Origin: Escherichia phage ESCO5
Sequence record: NC_047776.2
DNA: 64,000 nt
Strand: one strand, 5' to 3'
The notes beneath the pieces are model-generated. The model was given only the letters and a program-made list of their open reading frames with translations, was not told the DNA's origin and did no database searches. The position numbers and the translations under genes are program-made. Shown one piece after another: positions 42,859 through 58,214 of the stretch (positions are counted from its first letter, which is position 1; the number at the start of each line of letters is the position of its first letter).

Positions 42859-43818
42859 TTAGATTCCAATGATAGTTGCTGCTCGTTTATCCTTGGATCT
42901 GGTGTTTGCTCTACTACGTGACAAACCTCCGCAAGATTCACAACGAATGATATCGAAAGAACTTACCGCAGTGTGGTATTGTTTACCAGTAACAACGTGA
43001 ACGTGATCACTGCCACAACGAGAACAACGGACCTTCTCATCTGGGTAATAAGCGGATAAGTTAGGATGCTGTGGAATCCACGGAAGGATTTTCATATACA
43101 AATCACGGAGTGAAACAACATCACCGTCATTGTAAATCTGCATACGTTCAAAAGCATCACGATCACCTTCACAACATGCTTTCCATAAAGGGAACCCCTC
43201 GTTATCCAGTTTTTCACTTTCTGTTTCGAAATATGCTCCCATTTCTTTAAGGGAGTTGGAAGGAAGTGCAAATTGTTTCTTAGCTGCCTTCAATGTATCA
43301 ACAACTACATAATTAGAAGGAGGAGCCATATCGTGATATGCAAATCGTTGGTTAATGTATGCACGGTCAAACTTATACCCGTTGTGTGCCACAACTACAT
43401 CTGCCTCATTCAGAAGGTTCCAAAGATCTTGGCAAAGCTCCCAATCATCTGTATGATCAATATCAAAAAGAGGATAAGAAGACAAATTCTTACCTTCCAC
43501 TTCACCAGTATACAGATCAGCAGAAGAATAAGATAACAAATAACCTCTGCGAATTACCTGGTCTGGAGAAATGAAGGCTTTGAATCGACGGAAAGTATAT
43601 GCAATCTCTGGTGCAGTTTCAACATCAATAATTTTAATAACTGGTTGTTTCTTTTTAACTGGTTCTTGTTTACTTCCACTGAAACGTGCAAGGAAATCAT
43701 TCACTGTGCTTTTTCTTGTTGGGCTACCTAAAACAATTGCTGCAATATTGCGAGAAGACATACCCTCTGCACTCATACTAAGGATATCTGCTTTCTGCTC
43801 TTCTGTTAATCTGCTCAC
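42859..43818 (-). CDS. DEDD-family 3'-5' exonuclease with N-terminal HTH and C-terminal zinc ribbon
   Basis: IDVETA (Exo I-like), VVVAHNGYKFD (Exo II-like), N-terminal resolvase-type HTH, C-terminal CSRCG...CESCG. Confidence 0.55.
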   Translation of the reverse strand: MSRLTEEQKADILSMSAEGMSSRNIAAIVLGSPTRKSTVNDFLARFSGSKQEPVKKKQPVIKIIDVETAPEIAYTFRRFKAFISPDQVIRRGYLLSYSSADLYTGEVEGKNLSSYPLFDIDHTDDWELCQDLWNLLNEADVVVAHNGYKFDRAYINQRFAYHDMAPPSNYVVVDTLKAAKKQFALPSNSLKEMGAYFETESEKLDNEGFPLWKACCEGDRDAFERMQIYNDGDVVSLRDLYMKILPWIPQHPNLSAYYPDEKVRCSRCGSDHVHVVTGKQYHTAVSSFDIIRCESCGGLSRSRANTRSKDKRAATIIGI

Positions 43819-44933
43819 TCTGCCTCCTGTTGTGAGATGTATGACTGAAGCATACTCTCAAATGTTGTATCGTCATTATCCCAGCGTTTCATGTATACCA
43901 ACTGGAAAATTGTTTCTATCCATTCATCTGTTGTCATATGGACTTCTTCTCCATCCCAAGAAGTAAAATTAACACCATCTGGGAACCACGAGTAGTAAGT
44001 ATCTTTAACTGTTTGGAAAAGCTCTGCTTGAGTTTTACAAGCTGAAAGAAGATTAAAACAAGTAATATCTCCAAACTTAATATCAAAATCTTGATAGGGT
44101 CGGATACTATCTGTTTTATCTCCCATTAGCATCTGATATGCTAACCAGTAACTGCCCCAACCTTTAACTTCTTTCTTTTTACCTTTATCTACGATCCATA
44201 TATCGCCAATAGATTCATCAATAAGAATTATATCTGGATTTTTAAAGACTCCATCTTCTTTGTAGAAATTAAAAAGAATACTAGGAGTATGTAAACTATC
44301 TTTATCTATAGATACCACGATATAAGAAAATTTACCCGTCCTTTTATAATCTTTATAACCTTGGAAACCATATTTCTCTAACTCATCGTCAGCCTCTATT
44401 ACAGTAACAACATCACCATTGTGGAACTCCACAAGATAATCTTTGGTTTCTGAAAGCTGAAGTGGTTTGATATCTAATCGTTCAGACTTATATTCTACAG
44501 GCATTTTGAAGGCGTGTCTGAAAGTTTTTCCTACGCCAATAACTCCGCAATATTTTTCTAAACGCAGATGTTTTAGAATACCTAAGACTTTTGTTTTAGC
44601 TGCTTGGAAGGTGTGTCCGATATCTTCTGGCGGGTATTGCTTATCAATAATTTCGAACTCTTCCTTTGTGAAGGGACGTTTGTTTTTGGAGGCTCTTTCT
44701 GCATTTGTATCTCCTAGCCAACCTCCAATTTTAGTCTTACTTTTACCCCAAAACTCTGTCTTATTTTTAAATTCCTTTTGAGCACCTGAAGGGATGTGCT
44801 TCGCAATGATTGTTCTTTTCTCTAATGCAGACGCTGCTTGGAAAGCAATCTGATCATAATCAATTGCAGCTATTGTCTCTTCGTTGACATATAAATGAAG
44901 ATCTTCAGGTTTAATTAAAATATAACCGCTAAT
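43815..44933 (-). CDS. T4 RNase H-like 5'-3' exonuclease / flap endonuclease; start codon non-canonical or unresolved
   Basis: AAIDYDQIA, YKSER, EADD, LIDESIGD and LMGDKTDSI motifs align with T4 RNase H; the conserved N-terminal part lies in a 147-codon open stretch with no in-frame ATG/GTG/TTG upstream of the track start at 44504. Confidence 0.5.
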   Translation of the reverse strand: MSGYILIKPEDLHLYVNEETIAAIDYDQIAFQAASALEKRTIIAKHIPSGAQKEFKNKTEFWGKSKTKIGGWLGDTNAERASKNKRPFTKEEFEIIDKQYPPEDIGHTFQAAKTKVLGILKHLRLEKYCGVIGVGKTFRHAFKMPVEYKSERLDIKPLQLSETKDYLVEFHNGDVVTVIEADDELEKYGFQGYKDYKRTGKFSYIVVSIDKDSLHTPSILFNFYKEDGVFKNPDIILIDESIGDIWIVDKGKKKEVKGWGSYWLAYQMLMGDKTDSIRPYQDFDIKFGDITCFNLLSACKTQAELFQTVKDTYYSWFPDGVNFTSWDGEEVHMTTDEWIETIFQLVYMKRWDNDDTTFESMLQSYISQQEAE

Positions 44934-44945
44934 ATTTCCCCCTAA

Positions 44946-45155
44946 TTATTCATCGTCATCCTCTGTTGAGAATGTTTTAGTATACGGACATTGACGACTT
45001 TTCGGGATTGCTATAACTTCATCTTGGTTAGCGTTAGAATAGTAGCAATATTTTGTGTTGCCATTAACTTCAGAATTAGACAAGATTAAAGTAATTTGAC
45101 CTGCTGCTACTGTGAAACTAAAAGCTAAAAGAACAACTGTCAGAATCTTTTTCAT
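44946..45155 (-). CDS. Small secreted protein
   Basis: Strong SD AGGAGG; N-terminal signal peptide; stop TAA is in frame with the downstream flap-endonuclease reading frame. Confidence 0.5.
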   Translation of the reverse strand: MKKILTVVLLAFSFTVAAGQITLILSNSEVNGNTKYCYYSNANQDEVIAIPKSRQCPYTKTFSTEDDDE

Positions 45156-45164
45156 AACGCCTCC

Positions 45165-45192
45165 TAAAAAGCCTACCTCATTAAGTAGGTAG
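45165..45192 (-). terminator. Rho-independent terminator (GCCTACCT/AGGTAGGC stem followed by U5 on the minus strand)
   Basis: Perfect 8-bp inverted repeat and T-run read from the sequence. Confidence 0.6.
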
Positions 45193-45227
45193 GCATAATA
45201 TCATAACTAATCCCGCAAGTCAAGAAC

Positions 45228-46106
45228 TTATTTAAGGATTGTTGCTTTGGTTAAATCTTCCATCAGACCTCGAATCTCATTGAAGCACAGAAGGACTGAA
45301 GCTTCAATACTACCTTCTTCGTCTGCAAAATATTTCGGAAAACGTAGTTTAGAAAGTTTAAACTCTTTATCAACTACAAAATCTACAACACCGTCATATT
45401 CAAGACCGATTGCAACAACATCTTTACCATCTTCTTTTAGTTCGACAGCTTTAGACTCGTATAGGGATTCTTTACTCCAAACAACAACGCCCTCGCTATC
45501 CTCCATTTTGATATAATTTCCGAGAGTAATACGATCTGCTTCGTGATTCTCCAGCAATTCACCAAAACCTTTTACAATAGCTTCTTCGTGCACACTAAAA
45601 CCTACCGAAGGGAAAGTCCCCAGGACGGAACGGAGGAAAGAAGTAATCTCTTCTGCAACCTTTTTACTTCCATTAAGAACATAAAGAAGATTCGTAGTTT
45701 TATCCAAGACAACATAGTTAGAGAAATCTTCAGGTTCTGTTTCAGGCAATAGTGCAAATTCAATATCTTCTTTCATTGCTTTGACTACTTCTTTATCGAC
45801 ATAAAACTCTTTACCTTCGCTCTCCATGTCCTGACGCATTTCTTCTAGACGTTCATTCAGAATACGTTTAACTTTCTTTTTATCTACTTTCTTCACAGAT
45901 TGACCTACATTAAGCAGTTCAAGATCTGAAAACTCTTTTACAAATTTAGAGTCATCTTCGAAACGAACAAGACCGATAGTGTGTGACTGGGAGCCTTCTG
46001 CTGTTACAAATTCCAGAGGAATATCTGTAATGCTGTTAAGGGATGCTACAGAAGCATTGTCACCAACAACCATAGGCAGAGCGGATTTAAAAGATTTTAC
46101 AAACAT
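45228..46106 (-). CDS. RdgC-like recombination-associated protein
   Basis: Lys-rich central segment and LRSVLGTFPSV, GKDVVAIGLEYDGVVDFV segments resembling E. coli RdgC. Confidence 0.45.
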   Translation of the reverse strand: MFVKSFKSALPMVVGDNASVASLNSITDIPLEFVTAEGSQSHTIGLVRFEDDSKFVKEFSDLELLNVGQSVKKVDKKKVKRILNERLEEMRQDMESEGKEFYVDKEVVKAMKEDIEFALLPETEPEDFSNYVVLDKTTNLLYVLNGSKKVAEEITSFLRSVLGTFPSVGFSVHEEAIVKGFGELLENHEADRITLGNYIKMEDSEGVVVWSKESLYESKAVELKEDGKDVVAIGLEYDGVVDFVVDKEFKLSKLRFPKYFADEEGSIEASVLLCFNEIRGLMEDLTKATILK

Positions 46107-46162
46107 GTTTCCTCCTATTTAATACATCTCACATTACCGCCCGTAAAGGGCGGCTTACAACA

Positions 46163-46888
46163 TTACTTGTTAATAATGGCTGCAATGTTAGGTTCAATGA
46201 AACCTGACCACTTCATGATCTTACCTTTATCATCAAAGAACACATACACTTTCTGTTTTTCATTATAAACAGCATGAACACCAGTGTATGCCCCTTCTGG
46301 ACGATTGGCATTTCGTTCTTCAATTGCAGCGCATTCTTGTGCAATGGCTGAATCGATATCCGAAGTTTTCCAAGTTTTCAGCAACTGTTGTTTAGTTGGA
46401 TACTTGGAATCATTACTTTTCAATACCTCTTTAATAACTTTCTTTTCTGGATATTTTGAACGGATTAGAGTGTCACGAGACATACGCATAATACCAGCAG
46501 CCATTAGTGCCATTTGAACTGGCTCTGTAAATGTTTGTTCCAAAGCATCAAAATCAGTATACACAGTTGGAGTAAAAACATCGCCTACAGCATAGTCCAA
46601 GAAATTCATCGTATGTTCTTCACCAAAGAACATGTAGGTCAGATAACTGGATACTACAAAAATATCCGCTGCTGCATCCAATAGTTCTACATGATCGTTT
46701 ACTTTCGCGGCTGTTTCATACTCTTTAAGCTCTTCACGAACGAATCCGATTTGGGACATAAATAGCTCTTGAGTGAATTCAGGTTGTTCACCACCCCGTG
46801 CTTTAGCATTCCAATCAATCACGTGCTTCGCTGCATTTTTGAAAAATTCAGTATCGAACTTAATATCTTTAAAAAAATTCTCGATCAT
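46163..46888 (-). CDS. MazG-like all-alpha nucleoside triphosphate pyrophosphohydrolase
   Basis: EELKEYETAAKVNDHVELLDAAADIF (E..E...E..D metal-binding pattern). Confidence 0.5.
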   Translation of the reverse strand: MIENFFKDIKFDTEFFKNAAKHVIDWNAKARGGEQPEFTQELFMSQIGFVREELKEYETAAKVNDHVELLDAAADIFVVSSYLTYMFFGEEHTMNFLDYAVGDVFTPTVYTDFDALEQTFTEPVQMALMAAGIMRMSRDTLIRSKYPEKKVIKEVLKSNDSKYPTKQQLLKTWKTSDIDSAIAQECAAIEERNANRPEGAYTGVHAVYNEKQKVYVFFDDKGKIMKWSGFIEPNIAAIINK

Positions 46889-58059: not shown

Positions 58060-58129
58060 ACTTACAGGATAAGAGATCCACAATTTATTGTGACGCTGGT
58101 TCGAATCCAGCACGGGATACATAATAGCG
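58060..58129 (+). pseudogene. tRNA-like remnant with perfect T-arm but no foldable anticodon loop
   Basis: T-arm GCTGG-TTCGAAT-CCAGC and acceptor-like TTCCCGT/ACGGGAT; central hairpin CACAA-TTTA-TTGTG has a 4-nt loop; no CCA. Confidence 0.3.
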
Positions 58130-58135
58130 GGATAG

Positions 58136-58214
58136 AGGAGTCTGGTCGTCCTCGCCAGTTTCATATGCTGGAGATCATTGGTTCAAATCCAATTCCCGCC
58201 TCCAAATATCGCTT
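58136..58214 (+). tRNA. tRNA with CAT anticodon (Met type) and mismatched 1:72 pair
   Basis: Anticodon stem-loop CCAGT-TTCATAT-GCTGG, T-arm ATTGG-TTCAAAT-CCAAT, encoded CCA; A1 opposite C72. Confidence 0.6.

Follow-up and report, generated by a model that had tools for sequence, protein, structure and literature searches.

How is a gene translated when its conserved N-terminal coding sequence contains no ATG, GTG or TTG from which it could begin? This question is raised by a nuclease locus on the minus strand of Escherichia phage ESCO5, in a stretch of 64,000 nucleotides (record NC_047776.2) that was analysed at its full length and is called the window here; the stretch belongs to a Phapecoctavirus, that is, a phAPEC8-like coliphage. 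According to the ORF listing and a translation of positions 43815-45155, the frame is open from 44945 to a stop codon at 43815, and the earliest canonical start codon within it is codon 148, at 44504. The earlier note had described a frame that stays open for 147 codons above this ATG without any ATG, GTG or TTG, and translation of the ESCO5 window confirmed that all three are missing from these in-frame codons. On its 5' side the open frame is bounded by a TAA (44948-44946), which ends a 69-aa signal-peptide ORF lying in the same frame. With the codon usage of the window itself, in which ATG, GTG and TTG together account for 5.2% of codons, a run of 143 consecutive codons free of canonical starts has a probability of about 5e-4. 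Selection against competing internal starts in codons 2-147 is possible, and relatives do carry internal GTG and TTG codons; we make no claim on this point.

The features of the locus are collected in Table 1. The promoter-like site is the probable start of a transcription unit that would comprise the small ORF, the exonuclease gene and the DnaQ-like exonuclease gene, and a promoter is annotated at the equivalent place in the record of Klebsiella phage FBKp34. The hairpin that follows it would serve the upstream RdgC gene as a terminator, or else form a 5' stem-loop of the mRNA. The small ORF matches PHROG 4641 (function unknown; E 4e-26), and its homologue adjoins the exonuclease gene in nearly all relatives with a non-canonical start. 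The gene downstream (42859-43818), encoding a DnaQ-like 3'-5' exonuclease, matches the Pfam family RNase_H_2 (PF13482).

Table 1. Features of the exonuclease locus of ESCO5, in window positions
Feature	Position	Strand	Remarks
Promoter-like site, sigma-70 type, TTGACT-17-TATTAT with TG before the second hexamer	45195..45223	-	Predicted by consensus scan, 10/12 matches
GC-rich hairpin GCCTACCT-loop-AGGTAGGC, then TTTTT	45171..45194	-	Terminator scan and sequence; between promoter-like site and small ORF
Small ORF, 69 aa, signal-peptide-like N-terminus, two Cys	44946..45155	-	Shine-Dalgarno AGGAGG 45165-45160, 4-nt spacer, ATG 45155
Shine-Dalgarno AGGGGG of the exonuclease gene	44938..44943	-	Followed by 4-nt spacer AAAT 44937-44934
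ATT, putative initiation codon (AUU), presumably read by fMet-tRNA	44931..44933	-	Aligns with ATG/GTG/TTG starts of homologues
FEN-superfamily 5'-3' exonuclease / flap endonuclease CDS, full-length (predicted)	43815..44933	-	372 codons + TGA
Asp25-Tyr26-Asp27 codons of the IDYDQ motif, N-terminal acidic site, end of strand beta-1	44853..44861	-	120 codons upstream of the commonly annotated ATG
Internal ATG (Met148)	44502..44504	-	Start in most GenBank records; product 229 aa
GTGA overlap of the exonuclease gene's TGA with the GTG of the DnaQ-like 3'-5' exonuclease gene	43815..43818	-	Sequence and ORF listing

Judged by its modelled fold and its motifs, the product of 43815-44933 is a FEN-superfamily 5'-3' exonuclease of 372 residues, with its activity predicted. 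The model shows a PIN-like alpha/beta fold with a helical arch and an H3TH region, superimposable on solved FENs, in which a strand at residues 16-25 is followed by a helix at residues 26-36. The acidic residues of the two metal sites are in place, including the aspartate at the end of beta-1, and both motif and predicted secondary structure point to D25 as the first FEN aspartate. Among 36 homologues, D25, E180, D182, D183, D210, D212, D272 and D275 are invariant and D27 is nearly so. The EADD, DKD and GDxxD motifs align with their counterparts in 9l56 and presumably also with those of T4 RNase H; hhalign against an approximate T4 RNase H sequence gave a probability of 32% and left the N-terminus unaligned. 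Searches with the exonuclease of Pfam, NCBIfam and, as a single sequence, the PDB returned no match, and a profile search of the PDB reached E 0.04. The ESCO5 protein is not recognized by the curated Pfam models PF02739 and PF01367, and its distant homologues reach 24-28 bits on PF02739, below the cut-off of 34.3 bits. Because no sequence model gives a significant match, membership of the FEN superfamily rests on fold and motifs.

The upstream 147 codons are conserved as protein, down to 25-30% identity, in more than 1000 phage records. In addition, dN/dS of the clade is about 0.10-0.16, the N-terminal stretch included, which indicates purifying selection, with dS saturated in many pairs and the ratio computable for some pairs only. 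The earlier note had argued that this stretch must be translated, and that argument is supported by purifying selection and by two FEN-fold nuclease residues, Asp25, which is invariant, and Asp27, which is nearly so. It had also placed a candidate ATT near 44931; the codon exists, and its exact place is 44933-44931.

The surroundings of this codon resemble those of an ordinary phage gene. The sequence AGGGGG-AAAT-ATT fits the modal arrangement for genes of the window, AGGRGG plus 4 nt (18/30). The window holds 65 AGGRGG sites, 44 of them before a canonical start, and the sole other one before a long ORF that opens there is the site of the exonuclease gene. Its G-run is G5, G6 or G7 depending on the isolate, and AAAT-ATT is constant. 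Further genes with near-cognate starts were sought across the 64-kb window and none was credible, the other matches lying one codon 5' of a real ATG or GTG or being unsupported; an Rfam search of 43000-46500 for a riboswitch gave no match. By alignment and DNA contexts, the ATT coincides with the N-terminus of Vequintavirinae homologues that have canonical starts, as seen in rV5 (AGGAGG-GTCT-TTG AGT), ChuuTotoro (AGGGGG-ATTTTG-ATG GGT TAC) and PBES02 (ATG GGT TAT). The explanation that the earlier note listed first, AUU initiation behind a GGGGGA Shine-Dalgarno, gains support from this alignment of the ATT with the canonical starts of distant homologues at the same Shine-Dalgarno spacing.

We then compared the codon at the start position in 25 distinct relatives forming one clade (50-100% amino acid identity), many of them from metagenome assemblies, and found ATT in nine, ATC in nine, ATA in six and CTG in one, a single contig; none has a canonical start, and the eight outgroup sequences begin with ATG, GTG or TTG. 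ATT is also used by the Klebsiella phages FBKp34 and KP13-16. All 25 ingroup members have AGGAGG, AGGGGG or AGGAGA located 4-5 nt upstream of the codon; one partial locus (L053) has a weak Shine-Dalgarno. Most of them likewise have no canonical start upstream of essential coding sequence; four (L036 and L104-L106) have an ATG 6-9 codons downstream, a potential start that no Shine-Dalgarno precedes. In L015, L026, L027 and L029 the ATC immediately follows an in-frame TAA, which rules out an earlier opening of the ORF. Rescanning IMG/VR with the alignment yielded no additional ingroup lineage. Since ATT, ATC and ATA encode isoleucine and CTG encodes leucine, conservation of a hydrophobic residue is in principle another reading of this column, but it is opposed by the in-frame stops next to the codon, by the constant distance from the Shine-Dalgarno and by the use of solely near-cognate leucine codons.

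The best explanation, and one that we consider very probable, is that the full-length gene is translated from the near-cognate AUU and that this weak start is conserved in the lineage. From the ORF anatomy, homology, fold, Shine-Dalgarno spacing and comparative pattern, we infer that initiation actually occurs at this codon. The 30S subunit would be bound by the strong AGGGGG (44943-44938), the usual 4-nt phage spacing would place the AUU in the P site, and initiator fMet-tRNA would pair with the first two bases of the codon, giving a protein that begins with fMet. With AUU as a poor start and IF3 presumably discriminating against it, the level of the nuclease would be expected to be low, and ribosomes that end at the TAA of the upstream ORF, 12 nt away, may add re-initiation. 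In E. coli, the four near-cognates with initiation at 1-2% of the AUG level are AUA, AUC, AUU and CUG (Hecht et al., bioRxiv 10.1101/063800), and AUU gave 6-8-fold lower expression than AUG in one reporter context (PMC3592434).

The alternative that survives best, although we think it rather doubtful, is termination-reinitiation coupling, whereby the AUU would be served mainly or only by ribosomes finishing the small ORF, and the exonuclease would depend on translation of that ORF instead of independent 30S binding. In all ingroup loci the upstream stop lies 8-24 nt before the near-cognate start, often inside the Shine-Dalgarno itself (TAGGAGG), even in L104, where a methyltransferase gene stands upstream instead, and at an infC-type junction, UAA-GGU-AUU, about half of the initiation is re-initiation and the rest de novo (PMC3592434). 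However, a conserved full-strength Shine-Dalgarno at optimal distance is a mark of de novo initiation, and it is not sequestered by RNA structure around the start (MFE z-score 0.30). Short intergenic gaps are usual throughout this compact genome, so the closeness of the stop is not specific to the FEN gene, and IF3 inhibits re-initiation itself (PMC2268962). Coupling would complement initiation at the AUU, not replace it, and is a possible contributor.

A start at ATG 44504, which would yield a 229-aa protein and leave 147 upstream codons untranslated or as a decaying remnant, is very improbable. Although this ATG is the earliest canonical start codon and gene callers pick its equivalent in REC, EF1-1 and phAPEC8, such a product would lose D25 and D27 and the first third of the fold, from beta-1 to about alpha-4. 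The codons upstream of it show protein-level conservation (dN/dS about 0.1), Met148 is not conserved as a start position in relatives, and no AGGRGG occurs within 16 nt upstream of it.

We see next to no chance that the exonuclease is a C-terminal extension of the small secreted protein, produced through read-through of the TAA, a frameshift or a hop. In the ESCO5 window the two ORFs are indeed in frame across a single TAA, and a database protein of 444 aa (P0005) resembles such a fusion. Yet phi92 and phiWec179 have the upstream ORF in another frame, the G6 and G7 variants of the Shine-Dalgarno run shift the frame within the genus, and these differences of frame led us to reject the read-through that the earlier note had offered as an option. 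In several relatives a pair of in-frame stops, TAG...TAA, precedes the start, L104 has another upstream gene, none of the ten tRNAs in the window is a suppressor, and a cleavable signal peptide on a DNA nuclease would be biologically senseless. The in-frame placing of the small ORF is, on comparison of the sequences, a coincidence of the genus. As for P0005, the fusion is a gene-calling artefact, a TAG in its DNA having been translated as Gln by the caller. Also listed earlier, and favoured solely by the absent canonical start, were a sequencing or assembly error and a pseudogene in the ESCO5 isolate. Both can practically be discarded: 53 independently sequenced phage records show 100% identity over the 47 nt around the start (10 more differ by 1-2 positions or indels), viable phages of several genera have an intact, conserved ORF, and the clade is under purifying selection.

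Initiation at a near-cognate codon leads to the further question of whether the weakness of the start is itself selected. The start codon of Stephanstirmvirinae drifts among AUU, AUC, AUA and CUG and never becomes AUG, GUG or UUG, from which we infer that selection keeps the start weak; the adaptive value of the weak start is likewise suggested by its persistence. A rough count gives about seven codon switches and none to ATG, which is marginally significant alone. One pair of relatives, with ATA (L016) and CTG (L017), hints at a passage via ATG that was quickly reversed. The weak start is probably favoured because it would limit a potentially harmful nuclease. More tentatively, and with the odds in our opinion against it, the combination of a near-cognate codon, a maximal Shine-Dalgarno and a nearby upstream stop could be a lineage-wide regulatory device, maintained by selection, that ties nuclease synthesis to IF3 availability or the translational state of the infected cell, or strictly to upstream translation. 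If this regulatory reading is true, a dangerous enzyme would be timed or capped, and the locus would be without natural precedent in letting all four E. coli near-cognates, AUU, AUC, AUA and CUG, stand in for one another at the start of a single orthologous gene. The codons among which the lineage switches are exactly the four ranked weakest usable in reporter assays, and their lineage-long retention over deep divergence would be evidence from nature that selection can act on the weakness of a start codon as such.

A start call at the ATT is already public: in the ESCO13 record (KX552041.2 / NC_047770.1, HOR21_gp105), a 1119-nt CDS placed independently by the annotators begins at the same ATT, with the GGA just 5' of it marked as RBS. 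The ESCO13 genome announcement (PMC5374246) neither mentions the ATT start nor gives a comparative argument. Our literature search on an ATT start in phAPEC8-like phages and relatives retrieved no report, nor any of the clade-wide pattern, and a search for proteomic or ribosome-profiling data on the same phages retrieved none. The other records inspected carry truncated CDSs, of 229 aa in phAPEC8, REC and EF1-1, of 344 aa from a GTG in phi92 and Bas61, and of 345 aa from a TTG in FBKp34. A conserved replication/repair nuclease is mis-annotated as an N-terminally truncated and catalytically incomplete protein in almost every GenBank record inspected from phAPEC8-, phi92- and FBKp34-like phages, and several of these phages are therapy candidates. 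Start-codon sets of ATG, GTG and TTG alone cannot recover the FEN gene, and in one metagenome the missing start led the caller to read TAG as Gln and to fuse two ORFs. The question is tractable in E. coli K-12, for example with the BASEL phage Bas61 or the Danish MG1655 phages.

Among known FENs, T5 D15, T4 RNase H, E. coli ExoIX and M. smegmatis FenA share the FRxxYKxxR, (I/V)EADD, DKD and GDxxD motifs with the phage protein. In contrast to them, the phage protein has about 80-120 additional residues, with insertions following beta-1 and preceding the H3TH region; the known members have canonical start codons, and the sequences are too dissimilar for Pfam. For E. coli, the only confirmed non-canonical starts listed by Hecht et al. 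(bioRxiv 10.1101/063800) are those of infC and pcnB, both AUU. The infC gene, encoding IF3, has a similar AUU behind a Shine-Dalgarno, with weak initiation open to IF3 discrimination, and similarly a preceding stop a few nucleotides upstream (UAA GGU AUU in infC, TAA plus 12 nt in ESCO5, TAG plus 8 nt in phi92). However, the infC AUU closes an IF3 autoregulatory loop, whereas the phage product is a nuclease with no known link to IF3, and relatives of the phage have AUU, AUC, AUA or CUG at this position. In function, the nearest parallel to the proposed explanation is E. coli pcnB, encoding poly(A) polymerase, whose inefficient AUU is described as limiting an enzyme that does harm when overproduced (Binns and Masters 2002, cited in PMC3592434); pcnB is a host gene, whereas the phage clade keeps its start within the near-cognate set. 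Finally, Streptomyces sigR is reported (PMC5472188) to have a conserved non-canonical start (GTC, repressed by IF3) as a translational control point, and although codon, organism and gene class are different, it may serve by analogy as a precedent for a regulatory reading of the weak start of the phage exonuclease.

ORF calling, like the ORF track on which the earlier note drew, begins the FEN-superfamily 5'-3' exonuclease gene of ESCO5 at ATG 44504, and our translation of 43815-45155 bore out that note's description: 147 further codons lie open upstream without an in-frame ATG, GTG or TTG, as far as a TAA that closes a small ORF in the same frame. From the codon usage of the window, 143 codons without a canonical start have a probability of about 5e-4. 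The note's view that this stretch is translated agrees with homology, selection and predicted fold. Exonuclease homologues were found by tblastn in 1211 phage records, the alignments often starting at query residues 1-5; Pfam, NCBIfam and single-sequence PDB searches with the exonuclease gave no match, and PHROG 107 ('exonuclease') matched it with an E value of 1e-55. In alignments of 12 and 36 homologues D25, E180, D182, D183, D210-K-D212, D272 and D275 are invariant and D27 nearly so. An AlphaFold2 model built from the 36 homologues is confident (pLDDT 95.5) and places D25 at the end of strand beta-1 (residues 16-25), followed by a helix (26-36); in FENs the first catalytic aspartate lies at the end of beta-1, before a helix. 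For codons 2-147 dN is 0.18-0.36 with dS saturated, and dN/dS, computable only where dS is not saturated, is 0.10-0.16. A protein begun at Met148 would, according to the model, be without one third of the fold; judged from homology and modelled structure, these 147 codons encode an indispensable part of the protein.

Coordinates of the features at the exonuclease locus and of one tRNA gene
Feature	Position	Strand	Remarks
RdgC-like gene	45228-46106	-	
Promoter-like site and hairpin	45171-45223	-	TTGACT-17-TATTAT with extended -10 TG, then GC-rich hairpin and T5, then SD and ATG of small ORF
Small ORF	44946-45155	-	69 aa, signal peptide; between RdgC-like and exonuclease genes
Stop codon TAA of small ORF	44948-44946	-	
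Shine-Dalgarno (SD) sequence AGGGGG	44943-44938	-	
Exonuclease gene	43815-44933	-	probable start ATT 44933-44931; listed from ATG 44504 by ORF calling
DnaQ-like 3'-5' exonuclease gene	42859-43818	-	downstream of exonuclease gene
tRNA-Met(CAU)	58126-58204	+	one of two

Translation of the exonuclease very probably starts at an ATT. The earlier note had placed an AUU near 44931 behind an SD-like sequence; the codon is indeed present behind AGGGGG, but its exact position is 44933-44931, and the order on the minus strand is TAA, TT, AGGGGG, AAAT, ATT. Among 30 genes of the window that have an AGGRGG SD, a 4-nt spacer is the most frequent, occurring in 18. A canonical start stands behind 44 of the 65 AGGRGG sites, and among the remainder only the site at 44943 has, 4 nt on, a codon opening a long ORF near an upstream stop, namely ATT, 4 codons past the stop and followed by a frame of 372 codons; a broader scan of the 64 kb for an SD with a near-cognate codon yielded no other credible case. 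Distant homologues carry ordinary start codons at the place matching the ATT: the window reads AGGGGG-AAAT-ATT AGC GGT TAT, rV5 AGGAGG-GTCT-TTG AGT, Serratia phage ChuuTotoro AGGGGG-ATTTTG-ATG GGT TAC and Cronobacter phage PBES02 ATG GGT TAT. Codons 2-147 (44505-44933, minus strand) contain no ATG, GTG or TTG and the C-terminal 225 codons contain eight, which may reflect avoidance of internal starts competing with a weak AUU; this absence does not extend to phi92 or phiWec179, both of which carry internal GTG/TTG.

Relatives were gathered from IMG/VR, metagenomes, Logan/ENA assemblies and GenBank, and their starts were scored by an SD script that gave near-cognate codons the same weight as canonical ones. 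At all ingroup loci its choice fell on a near-cognate codon, with AGGAGG, AGGGGG or AGGAGA 4-5 nt upstream. In a neighbour-joining tree the 25 distinct ingroup sequences, whose identity to the window protein is 50-100%, fall into one clade; they start with ATT (nine), ATC (nine), ATA (six) or CTG (one, known from a single metagenomic contig). Starts in the outgroup (eight sequences from Vequintavirinae and relatives) are ATG (five), GTG (one) or TTG (two). Klebsiella phages FBKp34 and KP13-16 likewise read TAGGAGG-TGTT-ATT. In four loci (L015, L026, L027 and L029) a TAA immediately precedes the ATC in frame, so no earlier ORF start is possible. The residues right after the proposed start are kept as protein (I-S/T-x-x-F/Y-x-T/I-I-S), even in loci L104-L106, where an SD-less ATG sits 9 codons downstream. 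Two closely related IMG/VR contigs (L016 and L017, start at 701-703) have ATA and CTG, two bases apart; ATG is the one functional codon through which they could be linked in single steps, a hint that a canonical start arose briefly and was then reversed.

Re-initiation after the upstream stop may, by analogy, add to de novo initiation at the AUU, because the distance from this stop to the start is 8-24 nt throughout, and the stop often falls within the SD (TAGGAGG); such a contribution has been shown for an infC-type junction (PMC3592434). Read-through from the small ORF is rejected: the two frames differ in phi92 and phiWec179, locus L104 carries a methyltransferase gene in place of the small ORF, and among Phapecoctavirus isolates the G-run between TAA and ATT (44938-44943, minus strand; loci L112-L114) is G5, G6 (ETEC-TG, PNJ1809-36) or G7 (BI-EHEC), with the AAAT-ATT distance constant. 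This run falls outside the coding sequence as defined from ATT, and its length differences may be true SD-strength variation or homopolymer sequencing noise. The 444-aa database 'fusion' P0005 (801-2135 of L103, a contig from Logan SRR30397360) is a gene-caller artefact in which the small-ORF TAG was translated as Gln, as in an alternative genetic code; the DNA reads GAA TAG GAG, and the absence of a canonical exonuclease start likely caused the call. The window encodes no suppressor tRNA, and no RNA element is evident around the start. Sequencing error is excluded and the start sequence is genuine, since 47 nt around it are identical across 53 phage records, and conservation of the ORF across phages excludes a pseudogene.

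Over 43700-45300 the sequence matches Escherichia phage vB_EcoM_REC at 100% identity, and 62 further phAPEC8-like phages (genus Phapecoctavirus, subfamily Stephanstirmvirinae) share at least 95% identity with this region. The small ORF lies directly upstream of the exonuclease gene in almost all of the non-canonical-start lineage and is missing from the Vequintavirinae outgroup loci; its peptide, a member of PHROG 4641 (no assigned function), has two Cys and an acidic tail ending ...CPYTKTFSTEDDDE. The hairpin upstream could serve at once as terminator of the RdgC gene and as a stem-loop at the 5' end of the following transcript, and the FBKp34 record annotates a promoter at the equivalent position. 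Elsewhere, the tabulated tRNA-Met has an AGCGGGA/UCCCGCC acceptor stem with an A1-C72 mismatch, G2:C71 and C3:G70, and the T-arm GGUUCAAAUCC, features that we take to resemble the E. coli initiator tRNA; it is without the three anticodon-stem G:C pairs, and its D stem has 5 bp. The phage may here encode an initiator-like tRNA of its own.

In the ESCO13 record the CDS is already given this ATT as its start, a point on which the genome announcement is silent. AUU initiation as such is familiar too, so the start call alone is no novelty. Mis-annotated CDSs measure 229 aa (phAPEC8, REC, EF1-1), 344 aa when begun at an internal GTG (phi92, BASEL Bas61) and 345 aa when begun at a TTG (FBKp34). In the literature we found no report of the lineage-wide weak start, the interchange of four near-cognates or the systematic mis-annotation.

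With initiation at the ATT, a 30S subunit bound via the SD would position AUU in the P site, where fMet-tRNA would match it at two bases out of three; complexes of this kind are disfavoured by IF3 (PMC2268962), and by analogy nuclease output should therefore be low. AUU was 6-8-fold below AUG in one reporter context (PMC3592434), and AUU, AUC, AUA and CUG, exactly the ingroup set, support initiation in E. coli at 1-2% of the AUG level (Hecht et al., bioRxiv 10.1101/063800). Because the near-cognate state is kept through saturated synonymous divergence, and several switches among ATT, ATC, ATA and CTG never reached ATG, though one transition would turn ATA into ATG, we infer from these comparisons that selection holds the weak start, with modest statistics (about seven switches). 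Most simply, it would limit a potentially harmful nuclease. The only confirmed non-canonical E. coli starts, infC and pcnB, are both AUU (bioRxiv 10.1101/063800); a limiting role has likewise been proposed for pcnB, and the exonuclease junction resembles the infC-type junction, where re-initiation and de novo initiation combine at an AUU start.
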